64,000 bases of DNA, from positions 1,130,184 through 1,194,183 of the forward strand of contig CAYYWQ010000001.1 in the NCBI GenBank assembly GCA_964474825.1. The letters are read 5' to 3'. The notes under the pieces are model-generated. The model was not told where the DNA came from. It did no database searches and was given only the letters and a program-made list of their open reading frames with translations. Origin of the DNA: an uncultured Candidatus Saccharibacteria bacterium. Lineage in GTDB: Bacteria; Patescibacteriota; Doudnabacteria; UBA920. The position numbers and the translations under genes were made by a program. Of the stretch, positions 16,167-33,866 are shown piece by piece (positions within the stretch are counted from its first letter, which is position 1; every line of letters begins with the position of its first letter).

Positions 16167-16631
16167 ATGAGTAAAGGTTTTACTCTTTTAGAAACTTTAA
16201 TATATATTTTATTTTTTACTTTGCTAATTGGCGTTTTGCTGGGAATAACTTTCCAAGTTATTGCTTCCACAGACCAGGTAAATAAAAAAAGTATTGTTCA
16301 GCAAGAAGCGAATTTTGTTTTGCGTAAATTAAATTGGGTTTTAAGCGGGGCAGATAGTGTGACTAGTCCATCTCTTGCTGATGGAAGCGGTTCGGTTTTA
16401 ACAGTTGTAAACTCAGGCGCAGGCGTAACAGCGGCCACTTTTGATTTAAACGCCGGAGTTATAAGACTTGAGTTGCCACCAAACCCTCCCATGCCTTTAA
16501 CTACATCAAATATTACTGTTGCGAATTTAAATTTTACTCATTCACAAATTGTGGGACAACCGGAAAAAATTACAGCTTCTTTTCAAATAGGAGCAGAGCA
16601 GTTTAGTCTAACTAAATATTTGTATGACTAA
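16167..16631 (+). CDS. Prepilin-type protein (minor pilin). The start was moved to the ATG preceded by GGAGTGG rather than the ORF-track start at 16101
   Basis: 'MSKGFTLLETLIYILFFTLLIGVLLG' prepilin-like N-terminus. The upstream extension would overlap the previous gene. Confidence 0.6.
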   Translation: MSKGFTLLETLIYILFFTLLIGVLLGITFQVIASTDQVNKKSIVQQEANFVLRKLNWVLSGADSVTSPSLADGSGSVLTVVNSGAGVTAATFDLNAGVIRLELPPNPPMPLTTSNITVANLNFTHSQIVGQPEKITASFQIGAEQFSLTKYLYD

Positions 16632-17028
16632 ATATCAGGCCGGCTATATTGCTTTAAGTTCTGTAATTATTATCTCCCTTTTACTTGTTACCATTACCGC
16701 AGCTTTGAGCTTGGTGAGTTATTATAGCCGCTTTAACATTTTGGAAAGCGAGTACAAACAGCGGTCAGTGGCTTTAGCACAAAGCTGTGTAGATTACGCT
16801 TTTAGTCAGCTTGTTGTTAACCCAAATTATTCCGGAAATGAATGTTTAAATTTTAGTTCAAATAACTGCAAGGTCGTCAGCGTTACTGCTGGCAGTTATC
16901 CTAAAACTATTCAGTCGCAGGCACAATATGAAAAAAGTTATACCAATCTTTCCATTGTTACAAACAGTAGTTTCCAAATTCAGTCCTGGCAGGAATTGCC
17001 GCAAATTATTACGGCCGCCTGCCCTTAA
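16624..17028 (+). CDS. Hypothetical pilus-associated membrane protein (PilX-like minor component?)
   Basis: N-terminal hydrophobic helix without the canonical G-F-T-L-I-E motif. Embedded in the pilin operon. Confidence 0.4.
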   Translation: MTKYQAGYIALSSVIIISLLLVTITAALSLVSYYSRFNILESEYKQRSVALAQSCVDYAFSQLVVNPNYSGNECLNFSSNNCKVVSVTAGSYPKTIQSQAQYEKSYTNLSIVTNSSFQIQSWQELPQIITAACP

Positions 17029-17045
17029 ATTATTAATCATCAAAC

Positions 17046-17546
17046 ATGAAAAAATTTAAAAAGCAAAAAGGATTCACGTTAATTGAAATCCTTGTAGTCA
17101 TTGGCATTATTGCCATTTTGGCAGTTATTGTTTTAATAGCTATTAACCCGGCAAAACAATTTGCGCAGGCAAGAAATACCCAAAGAACCGCCAATGTGAA
17201 TACTATATTAAACGCAGTTGGCCAAAGGCTGGCCGACAACAAAGGCGTTTTTTCCGGCACCTTTACCCTAAACGCTACCAACTATACTTGCGGTACATTG
17301 CCAACTGCGGCCGCAAACATTACTACAGGCCAGCCCGCAACACCAGCTACTGTGAGCCCGGCACTTGGTTGTTTGGTGCCAACATATTTAGCATCTTTGC
17401 CGCTAGACCCAACAGCGGCTGGCGGGGCTGCTGACACTCTATACCAAATTTCCGTAGACGCAATCCAAAGAGTTACTGTTTGCGCCCCCTTAGCAGCAAA
17501 CGAAACCAGCATTCCTGGAGCTGCCGCGATTTGTGTAACACGCTAA
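17046..17546 (+). CDS. Type IV pilin (major pilin candidate)
   Basis: 'KQKGFTLIEILVVIGIIAILAVIVLIAINP' class III leader with cleavage after Gly. Thr/Ala/Pro-rich C-terminus ending in a Cys pair region. A strong terminator follows. Confidence 0.75.
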   Translation: MKKFKKQKGFTLIEILVVIGIIAILAVIVLIAINPAKQFAQARNTQRTANVNTILNAVGQRLADNKGVFSGTFTLNATNYTCGTLPTAAANITTGQPATPATVSPALGCLVPTYLASLPLDPTAAGGAADTLYQISVDAIQRVTVCAPLAANETSIPGAAAICVTR

Positions 17547-17559
17547 TTTTTTATTTAAA

Positions 17560-17590
17560 AACCTCCTGCAAAGGTGGGAGGTTTTTAAAT
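17560..17590 (+). terminator. Rho-independent terminator after pilin gene
   Basis: acctcc-tgcaaaggtg-ggaggt followed by ttttaaatt. Confidence 0.55.
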
Positions 17591-17667
17591 TGAGCCTATT
17601 GCAAAATTTACTTCAATCTGTTATAAACTCATATAAGTTATGTTCGTGAAAATGGAGGATTAGCAGT

Positions 17668-18309
17668 ATGCAAGAGTTGTATGTTGCAACGCTTGGAGCC
17701 GTCTGGTTCGCGCACCGTGCGGGAAACCAGGTTGTTCTCGATAAGGTTACCGGAAAGGAGCGGAGTTTCGTTGGGGGTTGCCTTGGGCTAACCGACGACT
17801 TCGGAGCCGTAGTTTATCAAGACGCCATTCCCCGCGAGCTTCCGGAGAAAGTGTTCCGTCCGGACGAGCCAGGTTTTGGCGCAACCTGGAAAGGTAACAC
17901 AACGCCAATCGTCGGGTTGTTCTCGTCATTTCAGACGGCATCATCGTATGTTGATTCCAAAGCGTGGAATCTCAGCGTCCCGATGCCGGAAACCGAGACG
18001 ATCATCCAGGTGCTAACCGACCGGCACGAATGGGTGATCTTTGGCCACTCTGCGGCCAAAAGACTTTTCAAACCAGGAGTCATGATTCAGCGCGTTGGTC
18101 AGGTTAAGGATGTTGAGCCTGATCTGCCGAAAGTCGAAGTGAATAGTTCCGGTTGGACTGTGTGCCCCGATTGCAGTAAGTATCAATACTGGGGCGGCGT
18201 GGGAACCAAGAAAAACTGTGAAAGATGCGGCGTCCGGTATCAGGTCGCCCCGGCTACGGCCCCGTCGCGGTCTGGATCTATCGCAGCTTGGAGTCGCTCC
18301 AACTTTTGA
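17668..18309 (+). CDS. Hypothetical 213-aa protein with C-terminal zinc-ribbon (CPDC…CERC), GC-rich
   Basis: SD GGAGGA before ATG. Codon usage is GC3-rich, unlike neighbouring genes. C-terminal 'WTVCPDCSKYQYWGGVGTKKNCERCGVRY'. No recognisable family. Confidence 0.45.
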   Translation: MQELYVATLGAVWFAHRAGNQVVLDKVTGKERSFVGGCLGLTDDFGAVVYQDAIPRELPEKVFRPDEPGFGATWKGNTTPIVGLFSSFQTASSYVDSKAWNLSVPMPETETIIQVLTDRHEWVIFGHSAAKRLFKPGVMIQRVGQVKDVEPDLPKVEVNSSGWTVCPDCSKYQYWGGVGTKKNCERCGVRYQVAPATAPSRSGSIAAWSRSNF

Positions 18310-18765
18310 AAACGTTTTACTCAGCCGGCCAAGGAGGTCTGGCGAAAAAGATGCAGAAACAACATCAACATGGAGCCGGCGATCACCCCACCGCCGGCTT
18401 CCACATTCAATTAACTTTCATGCTTGACACTATATTTTAAAAGGTTTATAATAGCTAAGGATTTAAGAGTATTAAATCTTCCGCCGTCGCTTAAAGCTAT
18501 GGCGAGACACAAGTAACACTTAAAAACGGCATAAACCACAGGTTCAATTTTGCTCTAGTGTAAGCCAAGTTTGGCTGATTGCTAGGGACCCCACAAGTCG
18601 GGGGATTAGAACACTATTCCTGAAATTTGGAATGTGTTTTTTGTTCGCTAAATTTGACCTCCTTCTCCACTTATTTTCCCCAGGTAATACACATCGTGAT
18701 CGCAGCAAAGCATCTTAAAGTAAGAGACTTTGCTCCGCTCAAGATACGAAAAGCGGAGAGTTCTT

Positions 18766-18791
18766 TAACAGCTGAATAGTGATTAGAAAAC
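18766..18791 (+). promoter_or_regulatory. 16S rRNA leader half of the leader/trailer processing stem (RNase III-type)
   Basis: Leader 'TTAACAGCTGAATAGTGATTAGAAAA' is complementary over 15 contiguous nt, extendable to about 27 nt with mismatches, to trailer 20629-20657 'TTTCTAATCACTATTTAGCCGTTAA'. Confidence 0.55.
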
Positions 18792-19043
18792 ATTAGTTAC
18801 CGCCCGGTAACTAGTGTGTACAAAACCATCGTGTCTTGATTGATTTAAACCCAATCGAGATGCAATGTTTGCGTCAATTCAATTTGAGTTCAATGATATT
18901 CTGTGAATAACAGAAAAATGTTTTGATAATTTACATTTTACAAAAATAAATTATCGCCAAGGTTTGTCTTTTAGACAGATCGAACCACTGGATTTAATTC
19001 TCCGAAATTTAATTTGGATTACGGGTTAAGTTTAGTTTTAATA

Positions 19044-20503
<1,460 letters not shown>

Positions 20504-20628
20504 AAGGAATAAAATATATGGCCTGGTAGAATTTCGATTTTACCTGTTGTCATACATTCCATAGGTCGTCGTTAATTTTTTCGAAAATTAGCGCTACTCT
20601 ATTACGAAGAGACGCAAACGGTTCTGTA

Positions 20629-20657
20629 CTTTCTAATCACTATTTAGCCGTTAAAGG
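20629..20657 (+). promoter_or_regulatory. 16S rRNA trailer half of the processing stem
   Basis: Complementary to leader 18766-18791 (see above). Confidence 0.55.
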
Positions 20658-20661
20658 TTAA

Positions 20662-20700
20662 ACTGCATGAAAAAAATCGCCCACAAGGCGATTTTTTGTT
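20662..20700 (+). terminator. Terminator-like element, copy A of a roughly 40-bp direct repeat
   Basis: ACTGCATGAAAAAAA + hairpin tcgccc-acaa-ggcga + TTTTTTGT. The same architecture recurs at 23128-23168. Confidence 0.55.
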
Positions 20701-20770
20701 TGGTAATTTACTCTTGATTTTTCAAGAGTTTTATGGTATTTTATAGAGTCCCGAAGGAGGGATAATACAA

Positions 20771-23014
20771 ATGCTACTTTACCAGATTGCACCTCTGGTT
20801 GATTTTTTGAGCGGGAACAAACCATCTCGCTCCGCTTTGGATTCCTTCCTTCAGGGAAAGCTGAAGGCTGGGGCACATCCATTTTTCCTGATGCAACTCA
20901 TGATCTTCGTGTCTGCGTCTTGCCCGGATCGGGCGGACTATCTGACAGATGCGGGTATTAGGGCTTTGAAACGAGTGAAGGACCGTTTGCAACAAGTTCC
21001 TGATGTTCCAGGAACCGAAGTCCAGGATCCGTTGCAACGCATATACGATGCGCCCGATGTCCCTCGTAAGACTGACGAGGGTATTATCCACGGCGTCGTA
21101 ATTGAGTCCTGCATGAACCTCATCCAGTCAAAAGTCGGCGGATCAATCCCAACTAGCGGATGGAAGAATTGGATGGGGACCGTTAGTTTAATTTGTAAGC
21201 ATCCTCAATCGACAGTTGCCGTTTTGGACAACATCGTCCAATTGACCTCTGGAATGGTAGAGCAGGATAGTCGTTTCCCAAAAGGAATGGCAGAGATGTT
21301 TGAGGCTATCCAACAAGAATTCTTCCAGAGGAGAGCTCAGCAGATTGGACTGAAGCGCTTGGTTGGGGAATTGGTTGAAACATGGAGCTTGGATTCAGCT
21401 TATCGATTCTTCGCTCTGCTCGTTCATCTTTTCCTTGCGGCAACCGATCCCGCTCAACCGTTGGGTGCGGATGTTCCTGGGACCACGATCTTGCGGACAA
21501 TTTTGGAAATCAAGGACAAGTCTTTGACTCAAGCAAAAAAGGAAATCCTTGACTATCCTTTGTTTTCCGCTTCCGAAGCCGACACTGACTATGACACTTC
21601 CATGATTGTGTCGAGGGCGGCACAGGTACTTGTGGAGATGCTCAAGGCAGAGTTGCCGGCTGTCGAAACCGTCCATGCCATCGCTAAACTTCTGAAAACG
21701 GTTAATCGTACCAACCGTGAGCAGTGGGTGGCTTATCTCGCGTTTCAAGCCAAACCGACTCTTGGCATCGACCCGCGCAGCGCCGACCTTTTAGAGAGTC
21801 TGCTGGGAGCAGAAGCTTGGAAGGCTTTGTGTGAACTTTCCAACCCAAAACATTGGGGTACTAACGTCCAGGTCACTACCGGTTTTAGACTTTATACCGG
21901 CTTGGATACCACATCGGAGGAGTACCGAGTTTTTTTTGGGAAGCTCCGCGCCATCGACTTCGATCATCACAACACCAGATTGGCTGAACTGTTGGACCGT
22001 CAGGTTCACGCCTCGGACCATACGCCTAAAGAAGCCAAGGACGCTTGCGACCGAGTTGTAAATCTCCTCGCCGGTGACACCGTTTTCAACTCCACCCATC
22101 TCCGCTTGGAATGGATGCGAGTCAAGCGCCGCGCTGACGAATTTCTCGGCGCTCACATTCCGCGCATTGATGTTGCCGTTCATCCGAAGTTCGGAGAGAG
22201 CGGTACCGCTTGCAAGTTCCGGATTTTCTTTACGGAATTGCCTGACGACCAGATTAGCGGCCTTATGGGACCGGAAGGGGAGATTGAGTTCAATAATATT
22301 GTTCTCCTTACTCTTTTCGGTCGAGACGGGCTGCGCGCTGCAGTGCTTGAATCCCTCGGCGCTATCCTGATTCCGCGTTATCTTGAACGGATACCAAGTC
22401 CGTTGCGCGGCGGCTTTGGCGGCAACTTTACTGGCGAGGTTTGGGCAGCGCGTCCTGCCTACCATACGCTGATACAAGTCCAGGAGAATCCCGATCCTGT
22501 CGGGCCTTCCTTCGGCAACCGTATTAACCCGGAAATCGCCAGGCTCGTGTTCCTATGGCTAACAGGCGAGGCCGCGGACTGTCCTTTCCGTCTGTATCGT
22601 AAGGTCAAGGAGAAACCCGAAGGGGAACAAACCGAGGACACTTACTACGTCGGTTGGGATTCGGCGAAACACTACCTTCTCTCCGAGAAGGTGACGCTAT
22701 CGCAGGTTTACCTGCGCACTGTTCGGGCACATACCAAGCCGGTCGGTGTCAAAGTCGAAAACGACGGTACGGTTGTGGTGCGGCAAGTCAGCGACAGGGC
22801 CAAACGCAACTACCGGCGATTTTTGTCCGACACCGGGCGACAGCTCGACATGACTCCAGTTCGCAAGACCTGCGAGTTACCCGGCGGTGTGCGGATTGTT
22901 CTCACTCTGGAGCGTACCTTCAACCAAGGGACTTTCAACTCCCTGGACGAAGTCTGGGTAATGATCCCGGACTTAACCTTGAAGGCCGACGCGAAACGTA
23001 GCTTTAAATTCTGA
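20771..23014 (+). CDS. Hypothetical 747-aa protein, GC-rich, no recognisable domains
   Basis: SD AAGGAGGG 8 nt before ATG. A 2.2-kb ORF without stops in 53-55% GC DNA. A palindrome (ctcttga-tttt-tcaagag) lies in its promoter region. Codon usage differs from the host. Confidence 0.55.
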   Translation: MLLYQIAPLVDFLSGNKPSRSALDSFLQGKLKAGAHPFFLMQLMIFVSASCPDRADYLTDAGIRALKRVKDRLQQVPDVPGTEVQDPLQRIYDAPDVPRKTDEGIIHGVVIESCMNLIQSKVGGSIPTSGWKNWMGTVSLICKHPQSTVAVLDNIVQLTSGMVEQDSRFPKGMAEMFEAIQQEFFQRRAQQIGLKRLVGELVETWSLDSAYRFFALLVHLFLAATDPAQPLGADVPGTTILRTILEIKDKSLTQAKKEILDYPLFSASEADTDYDTSMIVSRAAQVLVEMLKAELPAVETVHAIAKLLKTVNRTNREQWVAYLAFQAKPTLGIDPRSADLLESLLGAEAWKALCELSNPKHWGTNVQVTTGFRLYTGLDTTSEEYRVFFGKLRAIDFDHHNTRLAELLDRQVHASDHTPKEAKDACDRVVNLLAGDTVFNSTHLRLEWMRVKRRADEFLGAHIPRIDVAVHPKFGESGTACKFRIFFTELPDDQISGLMGPEGEIEFNNIVLLTLFGRDGLRAAVLESLGAILIPRYLERIPSPLRGGFGGNFTGEVWAARPAYHTLIQVQENPDPVGPSFGNRINPEIARLVFLWLTGEAADCPFRLYRKVKEKPEGEQTEDTYYVGWDSAKHYLLSEKVTLSQVYLRTVRAHTKPVGVKVENDGTVVVRQVSDRAKRNYRRFLSDTGRQLDMTPVRKTCELPGGVRIVLTLERTFNQGTFNSLDEVWVMIPDLTLKADAKRSFKF

Positions 23015-23127
23015 TCCCACACATGGGGTTGGGGGCAAGTTCTTCGTGGACTTGCCTGACCTTTTAAGTTCGTAAATTTATTTGTGAATTTGAAAGGTAA
23101 AAAATTTTAACTTTGTATTAAGAACGG

Positions 23128-23168
23128 ACTGCATGAAAAAAACTACCCGCAAGGGTAGTTTTTTGTAT
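23128..23168. terminator. Terminator-like element, copy B of the direct repeat (bidirectional terminator for convergent genes)
   Basis: ACTGCATGAAAAAAA + hairpin ctaccc-gcaa-gggtag + TTTTTTGT. Compensatory stem changes relative to copy A. Confidence 0.55.
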
Positions 23169-23186: not shown

Positions 23187-24395
23187 TTACATTTGGTCGG
23201 GAGCGGAGGGGTAGTTTTGAAGTTCTTGGTCGGTTACGATTTGTATGTTGGCAACGCTTAGGCCTAAGCGGTAAAATACAGTCATGGAAGGGATGCCGCT
23301 TTTTTGTCCGTTTATTATTAGGTAGACAGTTGGGTTAGTTGCAGTTTTTATTGCCGCTCCATTTTGTGCCATGACAGGCATGCTGCTGAGTAGGGAGGAG
23401 TCAAACTGGGTAGGGGAAATTGTTTGGACTTGCGACCACTGGTATCCGCGGTTTAAGAATGAGTCGGCGGAGTTAAATGGCGCGTACTGCCCGTTTGTTA
23501 CAAGGTAAATTGTGGGAGTGCCACTCACCTGGATTAATGAGCCATTGGCAAAAGATGAGTTTGGCATTTGGATGCTGCCGGAAGGTGAGGTGGAAGCCTG
23601 AGTAACAGTGAAAGGGATGGTGTAAGTATTTCCGTTTGAGGAAACCGTAATGTTGTAGGTTCCGGGAGTTATAACATTGGAGGTAGTAGGGCAGGTGCCC
23701 GCCGCGGTGGTGGTTGTAGCATTATTGGTTATTGTGGCGGGGTAGAGCGACGAAGAACATGGCTGCGTGTAAGTCGGTACTGTAAACTGTAAAGCACTGC
23801 CGTTTGAATTTCCGGTTGCGGAAATGTAAGATCCGTTACCAAACTGGATGCTGGGGTTTGGGTAAGTCGGAAAACCGGATCCGTTTAGGGTAACTACGCT
23901 GCCCGGTGCTCCGGAGTTGGAACTCAAGGAAAAATTCGATGGCGCGTTAGAGGTTGGGGTAAAGGAGGGGACAGTAATAATTTGTGAGCTTGTGCCGGTT
24001 GCCGCAAAAGCCTGGTTACCGTTTCCGGAAATATTTAATAAATATTGTCCAGAAGGAATTATCCTGCCGGTAACATCCGTGGCAACATTCCCATTGTAGT
24101 AGCCGTTGTTGGGAACACCTGCGGCAATTTGGTAAGGAGAAGTCCCGTAACAAGTTACTGTTGTGCCATTCATGGGGCACGAAGTTGAAGAGTACGGCAC
24201 TAAAGAAATATTTGCGTTGGTGGAGGTTGAAGAGTACGGCACTGTCCAGTTAATGCTTTGGCTGTTTCCGCTATACCAAGTTTGGCCGCCATTGGTGCTC
24301 GGGGCCGGGAGTATAATCGGGCCGGTATCGGCGGAAGCTTTTAGTGTAAAGCTTAAAGCCAAAACCGCGGCTACTAAAAGATATTTTATTTTCAT
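23187..24395 (-). CDS. Secreted Ser/Thr/Asn-rich surface protein (signal peptide, low complexity)
   Basis: N-terminal 'MKIKYLLVAAVLALSFTLKASA' signal peptide. The remaining ~380 aa are S/T/N/G-rich, with repeated 'SxNGN/Y' patterns. No catalytic motif. Confidence 0.55.
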   Translation of the reverse strand: MKIKYLLVAAVLALSFTLKASADTGPIILPAPSTNGGQTWYSGNSQSINWTVPYSSTSTNANISLVPYSSTSCPMNGTTVTCYGTSPYQIAAGVPNNGYYNGNVATDVTGRIIPSGQYLLNISGNGNQAFAATGTSSQIITVPSFTPTSNAPSNFSLSSNSGAPGSVVTLNGSGFPTYPNPSIQFGNGSYISATGNSNGSALQFTVPTYTQPCSSSLYPATITNNATTTTAAGTCPTTSNVITPGTYNITVSSNGNTYTIPFTVTQASTSPSGSIQMPNSSFANGSLIQVSGTPTIYLVTNGQYAPFNSADSFLNRGYQWSQVQTISPTQFDSSLLSSMPVMAQNGAAIKTATNPTVYLIINGQKSGIPSMTVFYRLGLSVANIQIVTDQELQNYPSAPDQM

Positions 24396-24933: not shown

Positions 24934-25188
24934 ATGTCACCGCTGCAAAAACAGCTAATGGCGGCGTCGGACCAGCTTATTGGCGTAAGCCAAGCAGCGC
25001 GTCTGACTCCTTACTCGGCTGAATATTTAAGTTTACTTGCCCGCAAAGGCAAACTCAATGCTGTAAAAATTAACCGCGACTGGGTTACTACTCCCCAGGC
25101 GGTTTTAAGTTATGTAAAAAAACAGGAACGCAAACACTCAAAAATCTTAAAGGGGCTACAAGAAGCGGAAAGGACAATAGCTCCGTGA
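24934..25188 (+). CDS. Small helix-turn-helix DNA-binding protein (excisionase/MerR-type HTH_17-like)
   Basis: 'IGVSQAARLTPYSAEYLSLLARKGKLNAVKINRDWVTTPQAVLSYV' matches the excisionase-family HTH pattern (…G.LPA.KIGRRWRI…). Its TGA stop overlaps the GTG start of the giant ORF (GTGA). Confidence 0.6.
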   Translation: MSPLQKQLMAASDQLIGVSQAARLTPYSAEYLSLLARKGKLNAVKINRDWVTTPQAVLSYVKKQERKHSKILKGLQEAERTIAP

Positions 25189-28100
25189 AAATAAAACTTG
25201 AAAAAAATAAAATCCCCAGAACAGCAAGCCATTTCAAAAAACGGAAGGTTTTGGCTGGAAAAGCTAAAAACTCAGCGGACACTATGGAGCAAAAGATTAA
25301 ACAAATATTTAAAGTTCCGGGTGAGGTTTCCAAGAAAAAGATTGCCAAGCGGAAAATTATAACAAAAGACATACTGCCGGTTATAGACGTTGAGTCTCCG
25401 GAGTTTGCAAAGATGGTGGAAATTTTTCCGGCATCGCGTTTGAAGGACGCGGTTATTCAGGGCAGTAAAATTTTGCTTAAGCCAATTAAGGTTCCAACCT
25501 TTGCCAAAGCAGGAGCCTTGCTTTTGCTTTTAAGTTTTGGAGTTTACGGCGCGACTTTAAGCAAAAATTATTTGGAGCAGGGTTTGCTTAAACAGTTGGC
25601 CAGTAAGCAGCAGGCCGCTAAACCTGTTGCGCAAAATAAAATAAATCCAAAAATTAAAGATGGCGCAATAGCCAAGTTAAGCCGGGCTGTGCCAAGAGTT
25701 TTGGGGGAGTCCACAACCTCTCAATCAAATTCAAATCTGCCTGCGCAAATTAGAAATATTTTAGACCAGTATATTAAAGAAGGAAAAATTACAGGACAAA
25801 AAGGCGAGCCGGGGGAACCTGGACGAGCAGGAGGTTCTGTTGTTGGTTCAGCCCCTATAATTTATTATCCGCCAAATCCTTCCCAAAATTTTACCGGCGG
25901 TACTTATTTGGGTGTTACAAATCTTTCTTCCCAAAATCATACGGTTACCAATAATTTAACCGTAAGCGGCAATACGACCATTGCCGGCGCTTTGAATGTT
26001 TCAAATTTTTCCATAAATGGAATAACCGTGGCCGGAAGCGCGCAGTGGGCCGCGGACGGAAATAATATTTCTTACAGCCGAGGAAATGTGAGTGTTGGTA
26101 CGGCCAGTTCTTCCGGACAACTTACGGTGTTAGACAGCGCCGCGGGAAGTTACTACGGCAGCGAGCTGGTGAACAACGGTAATTTTTCCGGAAGCACTGA
26201 AGGCTGGACTTTAGGAGATTCCTGGGGTTATTCAACTAATGGCGTAGGTTTTGTTGCCCCGGTTTTTTCCGGTGCTGTAACTCGGTTTAGCGCTACAGAG
26301 TCGGCCGGAAGCGGGTATAGTGTGGGTGATGTTTTAACTTTACTCCCCGGCACGTCTGACCCTGCGGGCACAGGTGGGACAATTACTGTAACCGCTGTGG
26401 CAACAAACGGACAAATAGAAAGCATGAGGGGAATGGAAGCCATCGGTCGGGATTATAACGTAAATCAGATTGTAGATGTTGTGGGTGGCAGCGGCAGCGG
26501 CGCGCAACTTTTAATTACCAATATGGACGGTGAAGGAGGTGTAGAAGATTTTGTAATTCAAAATCCAGGCAGCGGTTATTCTTCGGGTTGTGATACTTAC
26601 GAAGTAGAGGGCACCAGCGGGCATGATTTCCGGCCAATACTTTGCGCAGGCAGCAGTGGCGGCGTGGTTAGTTTTACTTTGAGAAGCGGGGGAAGCGGGT
26701 ATTTGGAAGAAGAGCATAATACCAGCGGCGGCCATGGCAGCGGGTTTGTTGCCAACATTCGTGAGGTTTCCGCTTTGGGAACCATTGATTTAATCCCGGG
26801 GTTTGACGACGGCCATTACGGCACTGGCTACCATGTAGGTGACGTGTTAACTGTTTTGCCAGGCATAGGTGACAACGAAGCCAGCGGCGGCACGTTGACC
26901 GTAACCGAAGTTTCCAACGGAGAAATATTTGCCTCTTCCATTCAGAACGACGGCATTGGTTACCAAGTAGGCGACGTGCTTACTATTCCTGGTGGCACCG
27001 GCGGGGAATATACTGTTAGCGGAATAGACGAAGCCGGTGACGGACATATTGAAAGCATTGCCGGCATAAATGGCGCTGACCAAATGGGCAGCGGTTATGA
27101 GCGAGGGGACATTTTAAATGTAGCGGCCGGCACCGGTGGGCAAATTACTATTGACGCGGTTTTAGACGGCCAGGTTTTCTTTGCTTTTCCGGAAACAGTT
27201 GCCAATGCCGGTAGCGGCTACGCGGCAGATGACATAATTACAGTAAACGGTGGTGACGGACCTGTAGATTTAATTATTGTAGAAGTTGCAAACGACAGTT
27301 TAGGATTATGGGAACCCAATACCGCAGACGGCAACAACGGAGTTACTGCTTCGGGTACTGGTTATAGTGTAGGTGATATTGTAAATGTTGATGGCGGCAG
27401 TGGAGGACAATTATATGTACAAGTCGTAGACGAAAATGGTGGTGTGCAAAGCTATAGTGTTTATGAAAATGGAAGCGGCTACACGCTGGGATATAACGCC
27501 TATGCTACTTCTTATGGCGGCAGCGGCACGGGTTTTGTGGCAAATGTAGGTGTGCTCCCCGAAGGTGGGGTTCTGTTTGCGGAAAGTAACAGCAGTCATA
27601 ACGGCACCGGTTACACTTCCGGAAATTACAGCGTAACAGGCGGCAGCGGCAGTGGTTTCTCGCCAATGGTACTGGCTGGAGATATAAGTTTTGGTTTTTT
27701 CACAGAGGCGAATATTCATAATCCGGGCAGCGGGTATGTGCCGGGGGATATAATTACTATTTCCGGCGGCAGTGGCGCTAAAATAATCATAGCCGGTACC
27801 AATAGCAGTGGCGGCGTAACAGACTGGAATCTTTATAAACCTGGCACAGGCTATACCGCGGGCTACGCTACTCATTCTACAACGGGTGGGTCGGGAACAG
27901 GTTTTAGTATGGATTTAGGTTTTCCAGATTTTGGCGGAATTGTGGATTCTGAGCTTACAGAAGCCGGCAGCGGCTATGCTTATGGAGTCCACCTGGCTCT
28001 CGGCGGCCATGGCAGCGGTTATATGCCTTTGCTAAATACTGAAAGTGAGTTGGGCGAACTGCAGTATAATGACTATCAACCTGTAAACGGCGGCAGTGGG

Positions 28101-31100
28101 TACCAAGTTGGGGATTTAGTAGATGTTTCCGGCGGCACCGGCGGTAAAGTTTTTGTCACTAGTGTTTCCCCAAGTGGTGCTGTAAGGACTATCTACATTG
28201 CCAGAAACGGCACAGGGTATGCTTCTGACTGGGCTTATAGGTCAACAACCGGCGGTTCAGGTACGGGCTTGTTAATTAACGCTTTTGCCAGGAATTATCA
28301 CAACAATGCAATAACCGCAGGTTCTATTACTTCAGCTGGCAGTGGCTATACCAGCGGGACTAATTTAACTTTAAGCGGCGGCTCAGGCAGCGGCGCCACA
28401 ATAAATATTACTGCTACTGGTTTAGGCGGAGCAATAAGTGAGGTAGATGTTACAACCGGGGGCTCTAATTATATTGCCGGGAATCATGCAGTTTCCGGCG
28501 GCCACGGTGCCGGCGCAGTGCCATTCCTGGCAGTTGAATCTGCCGCAGGCGGTAACCTCGTCCAGGATTTATCAATAGAATCCGGCCGTCGTTACCGAGT
28601 AAAATTCACTCTTTCAGGCGAAGAAGAGGGTTGTGTAAGCGTATTTTTAGGGGGAGCGCTTGTCTCAGGTGACAGTTTCTGCGGCGACACAATTGCTGAG
28701 GTAATAGTTGAGGCAGTTAACAGTAACGGTTTAATTTTTTCTCCTTCTTCCGATTTTATTGGCAACATTAGTCATGTTTCTGTTACCCAGCTTAAGCCTG
28801 GCGCGACCGCCGTTTCTATTGTAAACAGTAACAGCGGAAAAGTTTTGGGAATTTCAACAGGAATTTCCGGTGACAACATTTTCTTTGGCCAGGAGTCCGG
28901 AGGGTTTAATACTGACGGTTTAGGTAATGCGACTTTGGGTTATCAAACTTTATACAACAACGCAGAGGGCAGCAACAATTTGGCTCTTGGCTACCAGGCT
29001 GGTTTTAGTAATGCTAACGGCAGCAATAATATTTTTATTGGCAACCAGGCCGGTTACTCGGAAACCGGTTCCAATAAATTATATATTTCAAATAGTTCCA
29101 GTTCGCCACTAATATATGGCGATCTCACTGCCGGTCTTTTAGGTATTAACACCATAAATCCCAATGCCACTTTGGACGTTTTGGGTAACCCGGCCCAAAC
29201 AGGAACCGGCACTATTTCCGACGACGGCGACGGGAATATTACAGGCACCGGCACAGCTTTTACCACAGAGCTGCATAGAGGCGACATTGTAAGAGACAGT
29301 AATGGTGAAGAGGCAATTGTTATATATATAGAGAGCGATACCGTTATGCAGGTATCTAAAAATCTAAATGGTGACACAGACCAAACCTTTACATATAAAC
29401 ATCCCGTACTAAATGTTACTAATTACGGTGCGGATTTCCCCGCGCTTTCTGTTTCCGCAAGAGGGGGTTTGTCCAGCCTTAATAGTTATTCCTATGCCGG
29501 AGGCGTGAGCAGTATTGCCTGGGGAGACGACAACCTGGCCAGCGGTGACTATGCCGCGGCTTTTGGCTCCACCAATGCGGCTGGTGGTAATTTTTCTTTT
29601 ACTGCTGGTCTTGGCAATATTGTAGAAGGAGATGCGTCCGCGGCTTTTGGGTGGGGTAACAGTGTTTTTGGTCCTAATTCTTTGGCTCTTGGCAAATTTA
29701 ACTCAGTCCATGGTAATACTTCCATGGTGTTTGGTGAGAATATGCAGGTGGACGGCAGTAATTCTGTGGGTATTAACTTAAACTACTATGAGTATCCAAA
29801 CCTTACCCGTGACAATACCATGGCTATTATGGGAGGCAATGTGGGGATTGGTACAACAACGCCCGATGTGGCTCTTTCTGTGCAGGGGGACATAAACCTC
29901 ACGGGCAACATTTACAAAAACGGCAGCCTGTTTGGTGGCGGCGACAGTGCCTGGTCAACAACCTTAGGCAGTGACCTATATTTTGATGCCGGGAATGTTG
30001 GAATTGGCACGAGCAATCCAGCGGCTAATTTACATGTTTATGGGGAAGGCTCCGGTGAATTTACAGGAGGTTATGAGTCAGTTTTGGCTATTGAGTCCGC
30101 GGATGCTAACCCTTGGGCGCTTTCTATAAGAAGGCAAGATATAGGCGCTAGTTCCGACATTTCCTTATACAACAACGGTGACGAAACCACTGGCGACTGG
30201 CGCTTTGCCGTTGGCGACGGTGCCGATTCTTATTACACCCCGGTAGACATAAATAAGTATGGGCTAACTATTGGTGAGCAAGGTTTGGTTGGCGGCAATG
30301 CTTTAGCTATTTCTCCGGACGTTGGTGGCGGGATGCTTTATGGAACTATATCGGCTCCTGTGCCGTTTGCCTGGTCTTTGGGTTATACAAGCGATGTTAC
30401 GGTAACTTCAACCCCTGTTATAACTTGGAATGGTTTAGGGAAGGTTGGTATTGGTACTACTACTCCGGCTGCCCTGTTTGATATTCGTGGTTCAGATGGT
30501 TCTATTGGTAGCGGCCTTATTGCTGACGACGGTGACGGAAATATTACGGGAACTGATACAGCTTTTCTTGCTGAATTACAAGTAGGCGACTCTATTGAAT
30601 TCTATGGGGCTAACGCTCCCGGAATAATTACGGAAATAATTGATGATACTCATATGATAGTAAGCCATGTCCATACAGACCCGTTTATAGACTCAGGATT
30701 TAATTATCAAAGCCCTTTGCTGAGTGTAAGTAATGCTTATGAGGGCCTGCTTAATGTATATGGTTTAACCAACAGCGCAAGCTTAGGTGTAGGTAGTTTA
30801 GTTTCCGGTGGTTACTCTTATGCCCTGGGTGCATATAATACAGTTACTTCTCCATATACCGAAGGACCGGGCGGAGTTGCTATTGGCGGCGGTAATACAA
30901 TTTCTTCAGTGCTCGCTTCCGCAATTGGCGTGAACAACACAGTTACTGGAGACAGCTCAAATGCCTATGGTCTTTATAATACAGTTTCCGGACAAGATGC
31001 TTTTGCGATTGGCCGTTATTTGAACGCTACAAGCACGGGCGGATTTGTTTTAGGGTCAGGATATTCTTACGACCATTTATTAACCAACACCATAGACAGC

Positions 31101-33866
31101 TCTTTAATGATTGGCTTTAACAGCGACATTGCCACTTTGTTTGTAGGTCCCGGAAATGGCACCAGCACAGTGGGCAATGTTGGTATTGGCACTACCACTC
31201 CGGGTTCTGCTTTAACTGTTGCTGGAGATATTAATTTTACAGGGAATTTGCTTTACAATGGTTCACCAATAACTTTTAATATTTCCAGCGGTCTTACATT
31301 AACCGGTTCGGATTTTGTAGATTCTGTGGACATTAATAGTGAAGTTATTGAGCCAATCCATGTTTCCTTTAGCAGCGACGGAACCCATATGTTTGTTATT
31401 GACGACGATACCGGCAATATATTCCAATACGACTTAGGCTTAGCGTGGGACATAACGACTGCCAGTTACAGCAGTAATTCTTTTGACCCAGGTTCAGAAT
31501 TTGCCTTCGGTGTGTGGTATGCCTCTTGGAAAACAGACGGAACCAAATTGTATGTAGAGGGGAACGCTGATGGCGACACAAAAGTAGTTGAATATTATCT
31601 TTCTTCCCCATGGGATATTTCTACGGCTTCTTCCACCGGAAATTCTATAGATATTTCAACTGACATTAGTAACGGAGGGGATTGGGTTTGGAACAGCGAC
31701 GGCAGTGAGGCTTTTGTAACTGCATGGGAGGGAGGGCTTATACATAGGTATTCACTACTAACTCCTTGGGACCTTACTACAGCAACGTATACAGGCCCGG
31801 TGCTTGAAGTCAGTATCGGCAGCGGTTTTCCAATTGGCATGAGTTTTTTTAACAGCGGCTTAAATATGGGAGTAGTTATGTTTAATCCTGGAAGCGGTAG
31901 TATAGTTTTGTATAGTTATACGCTCGATTCCGCCTACGATGTTTCCAGCGCTTCCCCGGACGGTTCCAGTTTTGACCTTACCGTTTATGGTAATATTACT
32001 GTTCCTTTCTTTAGCCCAGAAGGCGACCAGTTCTATTTTCCTGTTGAGGGTTACTCTGCTGTAAATGGTGGAGACGGAAGTATTATTCAATTTGAACTAG
32101 GCGCTAGCAGTAGTGGATTGCAATGGACAACTTCAGGCAGTGATATTTATTTTTCAAGAGGCAATGTTGGTATAGGCACCCACGAAGCGTCCGCCCTGTT
32201 AGACGTGCAGGGGTCGGGTATGCTGCCGGGGACAGGCACAATTAGCGACGACGGTTATGGTATTATTACCGGCATAGGTACCAGGTTTGAGGAAGAATTA
32301 AGCGAAGGGGATACCATTTTAATCGGCAGTTTTCCTTTTGGTCTTCCTGCTACAATCTATGAAATTTCTGACAATGAACATATGAGAGTCCAGCACGACT
32401 TAAGTGAGACCTATGTAGACACAACTTTTGCTTATCAAAAACCCCTTGTAGTTATGGGAGAGCCAAGCGGTCCGGAAACTATTTTTAGCGCCAGCGGTTA
32501 TACGGCCAGCCTTTCTTTGGGTTACCAAAATACAGTTAGCGGTTATTTTGGTACCGCAATTGGAACGGGAAATACGGTTATGTCTGCTGTTGGGCCCGAC
32601 GGCCTTATGGGAACGGCGGCCTTAGCTCTGGGCAGTGCAAATACTGTAAGGGGTCAGGGGAGTATTGCCATAGGAAGCTATTTAACAGCCGGCGCCGACG
32701 GGGCAATAGTTATAGGTAGTGGGGATTTTGAAGACGAAGGTTCTCTGACAAATAACATAGAAAACTCATTAATGGTTGGCTTTAACAGCGATGTACCAAC
32801 ATTGTTTGTTGGCGCCGGTTCCGGCTTAGGAACTTTTGGTAAGGTTGGTATTGGCACCACCACTCCTGACTTTTTAATTACTTTAAGCGGGGGGGCGTAC
32901 AGTGATGGTTCTTCCTGGTCCAATGCTTCGGACAAAAACTTAAAAGAAAATTTTGCCACTGTCACCCCGGCAGACATTTTGCAAAAAATTGTAAGTCTGC
33001 CTATTAGCCAGTGGAATTATAAAACGGATACAGCCACAACTACCCACATGGGCCCAACGGCCCAGGATTTTTACGCTGCTTTTGGCCTAGGTGGTAAAGG
33101 AGGCGCCAAATCTATTTCTACCATTGATGAGCCGGCAATTGCTTTGCTTGGCATCCAAGCACTAAACCAAAAAATTATTGACTTGCAAGGCGCGCTTGTA
33201 AATAACGCCAGCTCTACAATTGCTTTAACTGTTACCCAAGCCGTTGTGTACGAAAAAACTTTAACAGTTTTGGGACAGGTTTACTTTAGCGGAGACAATG
33301 TCGGACAGGCGCAAATTTTGGCCGGTGAAAATTCCGTGCGAATAAATTTCAGCCAGGCTTATTTGTATCAGCCGATTATTACTATTTCACCAATAGACTT
33401 TGACGGCAAATGGAAATTAAAAAACGTAGATTCCCAAGGATTCACAATTAAGCTGACTGAAAAGCAAAACTTAGACGTCACTTTTAATTGGCACTCTTTT
33501 GCATCTGAGCAGGCTAAGCTTACTGTTAGCAGCGGCACAACTTCGCCTATTACTTTGGTTGTCGTTAGCGGGGAAGTTTTGGGAGAAGCTATCTCCACTC
33601 CAAATACAGGCCCTGTAATCAGCAACAGCCCTCAGCAACCAGCTGAAGCTCCTTCGCCAACTCCGGAAGTTTTGGGGGAGTTTACAACATCCCCTGAGGC
33701 TGTTGTTGATCAACCTGCTTTCCCGTCCCCGGACCCTACGCCGGTAGTTGACGCACCAGCAGATGTGCCGGATTCGCCCAGCCCTAAAGCCCCGGACGAA
33801 GCCCCAACAGTTACGGCTCCTGAACCACCGCCAGCGTCCGCTGCGCCAAGCGAGCCGACTCCTTAA
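25185..33866 (+). CDS. Giant (2893 aa) membrane-anchored surface protein with a phage-tail-fibre-like intramolecular-chaperone (S74-type) domain; putative adhesin
   Basis: Basic N-terminus then TM 'AGALLLLLSFGVYGA'. Collagen-like 'GQKGEPGEPGRAGG' (about 25791-25838). About 20 Gly-rich 'GSGY..GD..T..GG.GG…V' repeats (about 26290-28560). Three modules marked by 'VGIGTTTP' and 'ISDDGDGNITGTGT.F..EL..GD' with YadA/Hep_Hag-like heptads and 'SLMIGFNSD.[AP]TLFVG'. 'WDIT[TS]AS' beta-propeller-like blades (about 31310-32100). 'SDKNLKENF…ILQKIVSLPISQWNYKTD…GPTAQDFYAAFG…IDEPAIALLGIQALNQKIIDLQ' chaperone domain (about 32928-33190). PT-rich tail. A start at the downstream ATG (25284) is possible. Confidence 0.85.
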   Translation: MKIKLEKNKIPRTASHFKKRKVLAGKAKNSADTMEQKIKQIFKVPGEVSKKKIAKRKIITKDILPVIDVESPEFAKMVEIFPASRLKDAVIQGSKILLKPIKVPTFAKAGALLLLLSFGVYGATLSKNYLEQGLLKQLASKQQAAKPVAQNKINPKIKDGAIAKLSRAVPRVLGESTTSQSNSNLPAQIRNILDQYIKEGKITGQKGEPGEPGRAGGSVVGSAPIIYYPPNPSQNFTGGTYLGVTNLSSQNHTVTNNLTVSGNTTIAGALNVSNFSINGITVAGSAQWAADGNNISYSRGNVSVGTASSSGQLTVLDSAAGSYYGSELVNNGNFSGSTEGWTLGDSWGYSTNGVGFVAPVFSGAVTRFSATESAGSGYSVGDVLTLLPGTSDPAGTGGTITVTAVATNGQIESMRGMEAIGRDYNVNQIVDVVGGSGSGAQLLITNMDGEGGVEDFVIQNPGSGYSSGCDTYEVEGTSGHDFRPILCAGSSGGVVSFTLRSGGSGYLEEEHNTSGGHGSGFVANIREVSALGTIDLIPGFDDGHYGTGYHVGDVLTVLPGIGDNEASGGTLTVTEVSNGEIFASSIQNDGIGYQVGDVLTIPGGTGGEYTVSGIDEAGDGHIESIAGINGADQMGSGYERGDILNVAAGTGGQITIDAVLDGQVFFAFPETVANAGSGYAADDIITVNGGDGPVDLIIVEVANDSLGLWEPNTADGNNGVTASGTGYSVGDIVNVDGGSGGQLYVQVVDENGGVQSYSVYENGSGYTLGYNAYATSYGGSGTGFVANVGVLPEGGVLFAESNSSHNGTGYTSGNYSVTGGSGSGFSPMVLAGDISFGFFTEANIHNPGSGYVPGDIITISGGSGAKIIIAGTNSSGGVTDWNLYKPGTGYTAGYATHSTTGGSGTGFSMDLGFPDFGGIVDSELTEAGSGYAYGVHLALGGHGSGYMPLLNTESELGELQYNDYQPVNGGSGYQVGDLVDVSGGTGGKVFVTSVSPSGAVRTIYIARNGTGYASDWAYRSTTGGSGTGLLINAFARNYHNNAITAGSITSAGSGYTSGTNLTLSGGSGSGATINITATGLGGAISEVDVTTGGSNYIAGNHAVSGGHGAGAVPFLAVESAAGGNLVQDLSIESGRRYRVKFTLSGEEEGCVSVFLGGALVSGDSFCGDTIAEVIVEAVNSNGLIFSPSSDFIGNISHVSVTQLKPGATAVSIVNSNSGKVLGISTGISGDNIFFGQESGGFNTDGLGNATLGYQTLYNNAEGSNNLALGYQAGFSNANGSNNIFIGNQAGYSETGSNKLYISNSSSSPLIYGDLTAGLLGINTINPNATLDVLGNPAQTGTGTISDDGDGNITGTGTAFTTELHRGDIVRDSNGEEAIVIYIESDTVMQVSKNLNGDTDQTFTYKHPVLNVTNYGADFPALSVSARGGLSSLNSYSYAGGVSSIAWGDDNLASGDYAAAFGSTNAAGGNFSFTAGLGNIVEGDASAAFGWGNSVFGPNSLALGKFNSVHGNTSMVFGENMQVDGSNSVGINLNYYEYPNLTRDNTMAIMGGNVGIGTTTPDVALSVQGDINLTGNIYKNGSLFGGGDSAWSTTLGSDLYFDAGNVGIGTSNPAANLHVYGEGSGEFTGGYESVLAIESADANPWALSIRRQDIGASSDISLYNNGDETTGDWRFAVGDGADSYYTPVDINKYGLTIGEQGLVGGNALAISPDVGGGMLYGTISAPVPFAWSLGYTSDVTVTSTPVITWNGLGKVGIGTTTPAALFDIRGSDGSIGSGLIADDGDGNITGTDTAFLAELQVGDSIEFYGANAPGIITEIIDDTHMIVSHVHTDPFIDSGFNYQSPLLSVSNAYEGLLNVYGLTNSASLGVGSLVSGGYSYALGAYNTVTSPYTEGPGGVAIGGGNTISSVLASAIGVNNTVTGDSSNAYGLYNTVSGQDAFAIGRYLNATSTGGFVLGSGYSYDHLLTNTIDSSLMIGFNSDIATLFVGPGNGTSTVGNVGIGTTTPGSALTVAGDINFTGNLLYNGSPITFNISSGLTLTGSDFVDSVDINSEVIEPIHVSFSSDGTHMFVIDDDTGNIFQYDLGLAWDITTASYSSNSFDPGSEFAFGVWYASWKTDGTKLYVEGNADGDTKVVEYYLSSPWDISTASSTGNSIDISTDISNGGDWVWNSDGSEAFVTAWEGGLIHRYSLLTPWDLTTATYTGPVLEVSIGSGFPIGMSFFNSGLNMGVVMFNPGSGSIVLYSYTLDSAYDVSSASPDGSSFDLTVYGNITVPFFSPEGDQFYFPVEGYSAVNGGDGSIIQFELGASSSGLQWTTSGSDIYFSRGNVGIGTHEASALLDVQGSGMLPGTGTISDDGYGIITGIGTRFEEELSEGDTILIGSFPFGLPATIYEISDNEHMRVQHDLSETYVDTTFAYQKPLVVMGEPSGPETIFSASGYTASLSLGYQNTVSGYFGTAIGTGNTVMSAVGPDGLMGTAALALGSANTVRGQGSIAIGSYLTAGADGAIVIGSGDFEDEGSLTNNIENSLMVGFNSDVPTLFVGAGSGLGTFGKVGIGTTTPDFLITLSGGAYSDGSSWSNASDKNLKENFATVTPADILQKIVSLPISQWNYKTDTATTTHMGPTAQDFYAAFGLGGKGGAKSISTIDEPAIALLGIQALNQKIIDLQGALVNNASSTIALTVTQAVVYEKTLTVLGQVYFSGDNVGQAQILAGENSVRINFSQAYLYQPIITISPIDFDGKWKLKNVDSQGFTIKLTEKQNLDVTFNWHSFASEQAKLTVSSGTTSPITLVVVSGEVLGEAISTPNTGPVISNSPQQPAEAPSPTPEVLGEFTTSPEAVVDQPAFPSPDPTPVVDAPADVPDSPSPKAPDEAPTVTAPEPPPASAAPSEPTP

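Follow-up and report, generated by a model that had tools for sequence, protein, structure and literature searches.

How did a GC-rich gene come to stand directly behind the 16S rRNA gene, enclosed between two copies of a short terminator-like repeat? The question arises in a 64-kb window, the whole stretch of 64,000 nucleotides (nt) analyzed here, which belongs to contig CAYYWQ010000001.1 of an uncultured Candidatus Saccharibacteria bacterium. In this window, an open reading frame (ORF) for a protein of 747 amino acids (aa) lies between "copy A" of the repeat, at the end of the 16S trailer, and "copy B," downstream of the ORF. The original prediction was that of a cassette inserted at, or duplicating, the 16S terminator. 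The first half of this prediction, a cassette of the insertion type, was retained, but the second half, copy B as a local duplicate of copy A, had to be abandoned. The 747-aa gene is probably, though by no means certainly, a self-contained accessory cassette that recombination at the 16S trailer brought in, with copy B as a scar resembling an attachment (att) site.

That two terminator-like copies exist, with the ORF and its AAGGAGG Shine-Dalgarno (SD) sequence between them, was borne out by the sequence and, in the case of the gene, by its orthologues. Positions 20662 and 23128 are the only exact sites of the 15-mer ACTGCATGAAAAAAA in the window, and both copies fold on both strands. With up to 2 mismatches allowed, a third site with 2 mismatches appeared at position 7881, giving 3 matches versus 0.73 expected. 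A repeat finder reported A and B as a direct repeat of 36 nt with 81% identity, and the flanking arms of 15 nt and 8 nt are identical. The hairpins contain 11 to 12 uninterrupted pairs on either strand when the A/T extension is included, with folding energies for the two strands of −14.1 and −13.4 kcal/mol in the case of A and −16.2 and −15.1 kcal/mol in the case of B (z between −2.9 and −4.6). Both copies possess the hairpin, the T-run, the matching A-run, and the position at the 3′ ends of units that characterize bidirectional intrinsic terminators: A begins 5 nt past the 3′ arm of an inverted repeat around the 16S gene, and B is located between two stop codons, 114 nt past that of the 747-aa gene and 19 nt from that of a 402-aa gene in convergent orientation. 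Copy A is predicted to end the 16S transcript and to shield the 747-aa cassette, and copy B should be a terminator shared by the cassette and the convergent 402-aa gene. At least four other terminators composed of an A-run, a hairpin, and a T-run are present in the window, none of them with a TGCATG flank or a GT tail.

For comparison, metagenome contigs were scanned for the 16S tail of the clade (CACCTCCTTTCTAAGGAATAA..TATA), which yielded 28 loci; the related loci fetched, designated by L numbers, total 483 kb. The trailer of relatives in which it is attached to 16S comprises about 210 nt, composed of the tail, a spacer, the arm TTTCTAATCACTATTTAGCCGTTAA, (A/C)TGCATG(T/A)AAAAA, a hairpin, and TTTTTTGT. 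As an alignment of 11 trailers indicated, the order of these parts in the window, anti-SD tail, spacer, 3′ arm (20630-20656), and terminator, is conserved in the clade. Behind the 16S arm, more than 10 relatives have a module orthologous to A, among them L023, L024, L033, L035, L040, L041, and L043. These 16S terminators have TGCATG, the A-run, and TTTTTTGT in common, and their stems are variable and perfectly paired: 15 terminator modules contained 8 distinct stem strings of about six allele types (TCGCC, CTACCC, CACCC, CACCCC, CTCCCC, and CCACCCC). Pairing was evaluated by calling hairpins in each sequence, and RNAalifold gave no information on them, as the MAFFT alignment of the 15 modules was not in register. 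As judged from these comparisons, copy A is the orthologous, clade-wide 16S terminator and copy B a different allele of the same module.

The specific allele carried by copy B is of importance for its origin. A profile of the trailer matched B only over its last 46 positions (23120-23165, profile positions 174 to 219; nhmmer, E = 5.7e-4). The left flank of B, TTAAGAACGGACTGCATGAAAAAAA, is the L043 allele, identical over 25 nt, and its hairpin, CTACCCGCAAGGGTAG, is identical to the hairpin of L047. Copy B agreed with L047 at 47/51 positions, with L024 at 46/52, and with copy A at 40/57, and the best match of copy A was L040 (48/55). B is closer to foreign alleles than to A, and the pair is therefore not a local duplication that has drifted. 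The compensatory differences between the two hairpins, as originally described, are real in that both stems pair perfectly, but they are not explained by a local duplicate that drifted. The left flank (AGGTTAAA or GAACGGA) and the stem (TCGCC or CTACCC) occurred among the genomes in all four possible combinations, represented by window A with L040, L024 with L047, L043 with L023, and window B, which indicates that exchange took place within the conserved core of TGCATG and A-run. The hairpin of copy B was also seen as AAAAAACTACCCGCAAGGGTAGTTTTTTGT in L007 (18750-18794, minus strand), at an ordinary gene end and without TGCATG.

A duplication of the terminator in situ, either as a long target-site duplication or by replication slippage when the cassette arrived, followed by compensatory divergence of the stems, would account for the identical arms and perfectly paired stems of A and B, as well as for two repeats in L002 that are about 90% identical over 58 nt. 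Nevertheless, this course of events is quite improbable: the hairpin of B is that of L047, its left flank is that of L043, and A is nearest to L040, so that a local copy would have had to converge on foreign alleles. Moreover, no terminal inverted repeats and no transposase were found around the cassette, and no transposase is known to make target duplications of 46 to 62 nt. Two kinds of mobile element were considered separately and rejected. A transposon or insertion sequence with target-site duplication would not agree with the missing transposase domain, the missing terminal inverted repeats, and non-identical repeats of 46 to 62 nt; in the case of an IS200/IS605-type element, no TnpA (Y1) or TnpB domain was present, and the repeats of the window and of L002 are completely different despite proteins with 76% identity.

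Alignment to related genomes, which had been suggested as a check, yielded an exact empty site for an orthologous cassette but only indirect evidence for the site in the window. None of the 28 loci with the clade 16S tail encodes the 747-aa family, and the homology of the relatives to the window ends at 20697-20711, at the end of copy A. An orthologue with 76% identity is located in L002, again downstream of 16S, the L002 contig beginning in the 16S 3′ end. There, the orthologue and a gene for a 126-aa zinc-ribbon-like protein are bracketed by a direct repeat with the local 16S terminator, the sequence of which is completely different from that of the window repeat. L042 represents the empty site: L042 1960-2284 aligns with L002 1-324 and L042 2223-4947 with L002 3185-5926. 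A terminator segment of 62 nt (L042 2223-2284) is present once in L042 and twice in L002, in copies 2.86 kb apart. The overlap of the two alignments indicates that this segment was duplicated around a 2.86-kb insert with the orthologous gene. L028 shares genes located further downstream of 16S, for an 84-aa helix-turn-helix (HTH)-like protein and a giant protein, and is without the 747-aa and 402-aa genes. The end of homology at A, the absence of the gene, and this synteny with L028 would indirectly point to an empty site for the window, too.

Could the gene be native, with nothing inserted, and A and B just two members of a generic family of terminators? Bidirectional terminators with A-run, hairpin, and T-run are indeed common in the window, one identical hairpin is located at an ordinary gene end in L007, and distant homologues of the 747-aa gene are ordinary single genes amid housekeeping genes. 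On the other side, the TGCATG-flanked module was confined across the 483 kb to 16S trailers and copy B, and no other terminator of the window is similar to it. The two stem alleles with their A/T runs were likewise found in these loci only in 16S trailers, orphan trailers, window B, and the one L007 site; the motif scan of a collection of genome contigs, which does not contain the genome of the window, gave 11 matches in unrelated taxa, consistent with chance. No sampled relative has the gene behind 16S, and for the orthologue in L002 there is an exact empty site. Composition also has to be considered. The claimed GC contrast of 54% versus 40% is real but smaller, 52.4% for the ORF (57% at third codon positions [GC3]) versus 43.3% for the rest of the window, which makes the ORF an outlier, not a unique one, as two other ORFs of the window have a comparable GC3. 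The four close orthologues are 8 to 13 GC points above their own flanks, and of the four distant homologues, three (L022, L051, and L053) have a GC content near that of the flanks and one, L054, is 11 points above them. Taken with these findings, a native gene between generic terminators is highly improbable.

If the 747-aa cassette was gained at the 16S trailer, the incoming DNA would have carried it next to a partial trailer. By the route that we infer, this partial trailer would have recombined with the chromosomal 16S trailer, either in a Campbell-type integration of a circle or in a double crossover for which 16S/trailer provided one homology arm and the terminator module the other. The expected product in both cases is a complete trailer next to 16S and a 5′-truncated hybrid copy at the far end, and the pattern of one full plus truncated trailers is shared by the window, L002, and L047. 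Today, A and B would act as bidirectional intrinsic terminators.

The loci of the relatives show, as far as their sequences can be interpreted, that foreign DNA has landed repeatedly in the region behind 16S, integrase-carrying elements included. The 16S tail with at least 300 nt of non-16S sequence upstream was found in 11 loci. Two of these look instead like 16S genes with insertions, with about 130 nt of 16S kept in L034 and 37 nt in L028. An orphan tail plus trailer with no 16S body upstream is present in L025, L026, L030, L038, L043, L046, L047, L049, and L050, plus L003. The trailer match of the orphan copies starts exactly at CACCTCC, the anti-SD. Genes for tyrosine recombinases adjoin the orphan copies of L030, L049, L043, and L050 (Pfam Phage_integrase, E = 1e-38 to 1e-45; mutual identity, 41 to 55%), which suggests that integrase elements may integrate into the 16S 3′ end, carrying a replacement tail and trailer with them. 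In L045, a stretch of 4.5 kb separates the 16S trailer from an orphan tail plus trailer and contains AbiEi/AbiEii, a fragment resembling a reverse transcriptase, and the remnant of an integrase; Fur-ZIP-RBP genes come next. In L024, the same Fur-ZIP-RBP genes are found 0.95 kb past the trailer. L047 contains an array in the order AbiE pair, full tail plus trailer, two genes, trailer piece, two genes, trailer piece, and its trailer copies start at profile positions 1, 152, and 100 and each run through the terminator. In L003, a 747-aa orthologue is located directly upstream of the orphan tail. The sequences upstream of the orphan tails fall into a few classes. A decayed 16S helix 45 in this position was rejected as not significant (p ≥ 0.096). 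Viral contigs contained no 16S tail, and their integrases were only 25 to 36% identical.

An integrase acting in trans, or a decayed integrase element, is the main rival to the cassette described above. Deletions may have removed the integrase, the element arm, and the greater part of the displaced tail and trailer from a tyrosine-integrase element with a specific integration site at the 16S 3′ end, copy B being kept as useful. Such an origin would agree with the four Phage_integrase genes beside orphan tails and trailers, with the integrase remnant and AbiEi/AbiEii between 16S trailer and orphan tail/trailer in L045, where L024 has the same Fur-ZIP-RBP genes after 0.95 kb, and with the 747-aa orthologue upstream of the orphan tail in L003. 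Nevertheless, the repeat block of the integrase elements extends from CACCTCC to the arm and ends before the terminator module in L045 and L050, while the repeat of the window and of L002 is the adjacent part, from the arm end through the terminator. The 114 nt between stop codon and B are too short for an integrase pseudogene, and none was found in the 64 kb; "element X," a hairpin downstream of the gene (Table 1), is not a detectable 16S tail. A decayed element is therefore regarded as unlikely, albeit as an alternative to be taken seriously. Both kinds of insertion may have a common basis. It can be put forward tentatively that the 3′ end and trailer of the single-copy 16S gene form a dedicated attachment region in this clade of Patescibacteria, where integrase elements would insert before the anti-SD tail and integrase-less cassettes would ride the same repeats via the TGCATG/A-run core, thereby building rRNA-anchored arrays of accessory and defence genes that would resemble an integron or the island arrays at tmRNA genes.

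Evaluation of a gain of the cassette at the 16S trailer needs to consider several points that weigh against it. The window contains no integrase, transposase, or recombinase of the relatives' family, which indicates that any mobility is historical or was provided in trans. The cassette orthologues are about 24% different at the nucleotide level; the events are consequently old, and gain and loss via the repeats are inseparable. Copy B keeps only about 46 nt and is without the intact arm and tail that a full orphan trailer would have. A terminator identical to CTACCCGCAAGGGTAG occurs once in L007 without a recognizable 16S context. Moreover, the count of the modules covers the 64-kb window of a 1.21-Mb contig, and the terminator activity of A and B is a prediction from folding.

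Table 1. Positions of the features in the 64-kb window and of integrase and array genes in related loci
Feature	Position	Strand	Basis and remarks
Inverted-repeat 5′ arm around 16S	18763..18789	+	27 nt, 93% complementary to 20630-20656; minus-strand match to the trailer profile
16S rRNA gene	19037..20501	+	Rfam SSU_rRNA_bacteria, 1389.8 bits, full length
16S tail + trailer	20492..20698	+	nhmmer trailer profile, E 2.5e-56, profile positions 1-219
Copy A, predicted native terminator (bidirectional, intrinsic) of the 16S operon	20662..20700	.	Stem allele TCGCC; orthologous modules in relatives
8-bp hairpin/palindrome ACTCTTGA-TTTT-TCAAGAGT	20710..20729	+	−9.8 kcal/mol, z −4.6; flagged terminator-like
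Shine-Dalgarno AAGGAGG	20754..20760	+	10 nt before ATG; read from sequence
747-aa ORF, function unassigned	20771..23014	+	N-terminal helical solenoid (~1-440) + C-terminal alpha/beta domain
Hairpin at gene 3′ end	23031..23059	+	−16.5 kcal/mol, z −3.6
Element X, AT-rich 18-bp hairpin with G-U pairs, unexplained	23058..23098	+	−15.9 kcal/mol, z −5.7
Copy B, 5′-truncated second copy of the 16S-trailer end	23120..23168 (23128-23168 from 15-mer)	.	Stem allele CTACCC
Convergent 402-aa gene, no assigned function	23187..24395	-	ORF list; stop codon 19 nt from copy B
Tyrosine integrases	L030 503-1453; L049 109-1092; L043 1-609; L050 627-1691		Orientation with the 16S tail on the + strand
L047 array genes	L047 1-5105		AbiEi/AbiEii; MerR-like + 115-aa; 136-aa Cys-rich + 86-aa

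The 747-aa gene is accompanied by signals of its own. About 65 nt before the start codon are common to all four close orthologues, containing a hairpin of 7 to 8 bp over a −35 element of the TTGAYT type and the spacer, a T-run, an extended −10 element of the TGnTAT type, and AGTCCCRAAGGAGGGATAA, which is kept in all four. In the window, the −35 element is TTGATT (20714-20719); the upstream hairpin overlaps it as well as the spacer, and TG (20734-20735) and the −10 element TATTTT (20737-20742) come next. This promoter remained below the threshold of a consensus promoter scan. The hairpin is conserved with covarying positions in L001, L002, L003, and L022, plus a second L001 site. The L022 gene, 41% identical and located among core genes, has the same upstream layout with the covarying stem CCCTGGA/TCCGGGG. 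The palindromic operator that had been proposed is thus present as a palindrome but has the form of a hairpin over the −35 element and spacer with a T-run, covarying even in the 41%-identical homologue, and it may be an operator or an insulating hairpin. The second L001 site (8456-8486) shows the layout of a hairpin plus TGGTATTAT with compensatory stem changes before a gene for a methyltransferase, which is located 1.5 kb upstream of the 747-aa orthologue in a neighborhood with GIY-YIG fragments and a SocA_Panacea gene.

Downstream of the gene, the hairpin at its 3′ end is possibly the terminator of the 747-aa gene itself, though its T-run is poor. Element X was significantly similar only to L003 211-249 (z 11, 39 nt), which is upstream of the orthologous gene there and has TTTTTTGTTTG behind it, as does copy A in the window. 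The location downstream in the window but upstream in L003 may be the trace of a circular permutation, or element X may mark a boundary. Element X as a decayed 16S tail was rejected, with alignments at noise level (p ≥ 0.17) and no match to the trailer profile.

A word-index protein search with the 747-aa product gave four proteins, that of the window itself plus three with 61 to 77% identity, and nothing beyond these four was found when it was repeated with a profile of 25 sequences. An exhaustive profile search of 1.84 billion proteins retrieved 30 cluster representatives, most of them 730 to 770 aa long. The AlphaFold2 (AF2) model based on 25 sequences reached a predicted local distance difference test (pLDDT) score of 83.3 and a predicted template modeling (pTM) score of 0.76, versus a pLDDT of 44.8 when only four sequences were used. 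The structural check suggested by the original prediction ended with this confident model and no known fold or family: the protein had no match in Pfam, PHROGs, NCBIfam, PADLOC, or the PDB sequences, and the model had none among PDB folds or viral folds (BFVD). Most of the invariant residues are borne by the C-terminal alpha/beta domain. With low confidence, the solenoid and the Arg- and aromatic-rich conserved C-terminal motifs of the model lead to the guess that the protein might be a scaffold binding nucleic acids or proteins. The distant homologues, with 29 to 41% identity, are single genes amid housekeeping genes (frr/rseP/aminoacyl-tRNA synthetase/mreB, L25/ftsW, dprA/topA, and corA/grpE) and mostly have a GC content near that of their flanks. 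This indicates that the family is a protein of small-genome bacteria and not an obligate mobile-element gene. Within the clade of the window, as its sequence contexts indicate, the gene occupies accessory contexts.

The 16S gene of the window stands alone, 23S being absent from all 64 kb in an Rfam search. The 27-nt inverted repeat around it (18763-18789/20630-20656) is probably an rRNA processing stem. On the far side of copy B, the 402-aa gene had no Pfam match. Its homologues occur in unrelated contexts, and the empty-site test by way of these homologues showed no conserved synteny. A homologue of a neighbor gene in the window was labeled Patescibacteria. The 402-aa gene contains a 21-nt motif twice, 42 nt apart, with 95% identity (24181-24243). 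Two ORFs of the window are very large, 2,893 aa (25185-33866) and 1,664 aa (51426-56420), and the former is preceded by the 84-aa HTH-like gene, the same pair being found downstream of the L028 16S. Directly upstream of 16S are small ORFs (16624-18309), one of them pilin-like with an N-terminal methylation motif (17046-17546), another a 213-aa ORF (17668-18309) with a GC3 of 0.59, as high as that of the 747-aa gene.

Some further observations concern the relatives. The 16S insertion of L039 (346/1232) comprises about 885 nt at a position equivalent to 20371/20372 of the window, and that of L034 (~745) is at the same site. In L028, two LAGLIDADG-like ORFs (251-1564) are located directly before the last 37 nt of 16S. 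The 136-aa/86-aa gene pair of L047 is also present in L043. L032 has a TCGCC-type terminator (349-376) behind the trailer and a near copy of it (3490-3519) 3.1 kb downstream, with three genes between them.

Genes for stable RNAs are classic landing sites of islands, the known cases being genes for tRNAs and transfer-messenger RNA (tmRNA), and an island at the 3′ end of such a gene is the closest known kind. In Dehalococcoides, tandem arrays of islands reportedly have repeats of the ssrA 3′ end as their boundaries. As in these islands, accessory DNA is located here directly 3′ of a stable-RNA gene, with direct repeats that stem from the 3′ part or flank of the gene, and the relatives display empty sites, a tandem array (L047), and adjacent tyrosine integrases (L030, L049, L043, and L050). 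In contrast to them, the target is the 16S rRNA tail plus trailer, the repeat in the window is the terminator only (profile positions 174 to 219) without the end of the RNA gene, and no integrase is present. The elements of the relatives share both features missing from the window, the integrase beside the att site and repeats with the RNA 3′ end (CACCTCC). A literature search revealed no report of integration into, or of integrases targeting, the 16S 3′ end, which is weak evidence of novelty.

Another comparison concerns the microcin H47 island of Escherichia coli, which is outlined in the cited accounts as small, recombinase-less, and flanked by imperfect direct repeats (PMC3191183, PMC5426353). 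The 747-aa cassette resembles it in short, imperfect direct repeats and in the lack of a site-specific recombinase of its own but differs in the host and in the repeats, which are here predicted terminators derived from an rRNA trailer, around a cassette whose mobility is putative. Integron cassettes with their attC sites are similar as single-gene units with hairpin repeats that are conserved in structure more than in sequence, and in the arrays of the relatives. Unlike them, the 747-aa gene has a conserved promoter and SD of its own, no IntI is encoded in the window, no R″/R′ core was found, with no GTTRRRY in A or B, and the repeats are short terminator hairpins with A/T runs. Finally, homology-facilitated illegitimate recombination occurs in naturally transformable bacteria, and the conserved anchor that it uses, here 16S, would explain foreign DNA next to this gene. 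It would differ in that the far junction has homology, to the terminator module, and not microhomology, and competence of this organism is an assumption.

The 747-aa cassette of the window would be an old, integrase-less relic, and it led to a recurrent hot spot at the 16S trailer. Its product represents a protein family with a confident fold, restricted to a clade and with no known relative. The anchor in this case is the 16S tail plus trailer of small genomes in which the only 16S gene is unlinked. Should this hold generally, accessory and defence genes such as the AbiE and nuclease genes of the relatives may spread between species by way of the most conserved sequence of the genome. Orphan anti-SD/trailer fragments in metagenome assemblies, as well as contig breaks close to 16S, would then have an explanation, and the region behind 16S would be a place to seek strain-variable genes in bacteria of the candidate phyla.

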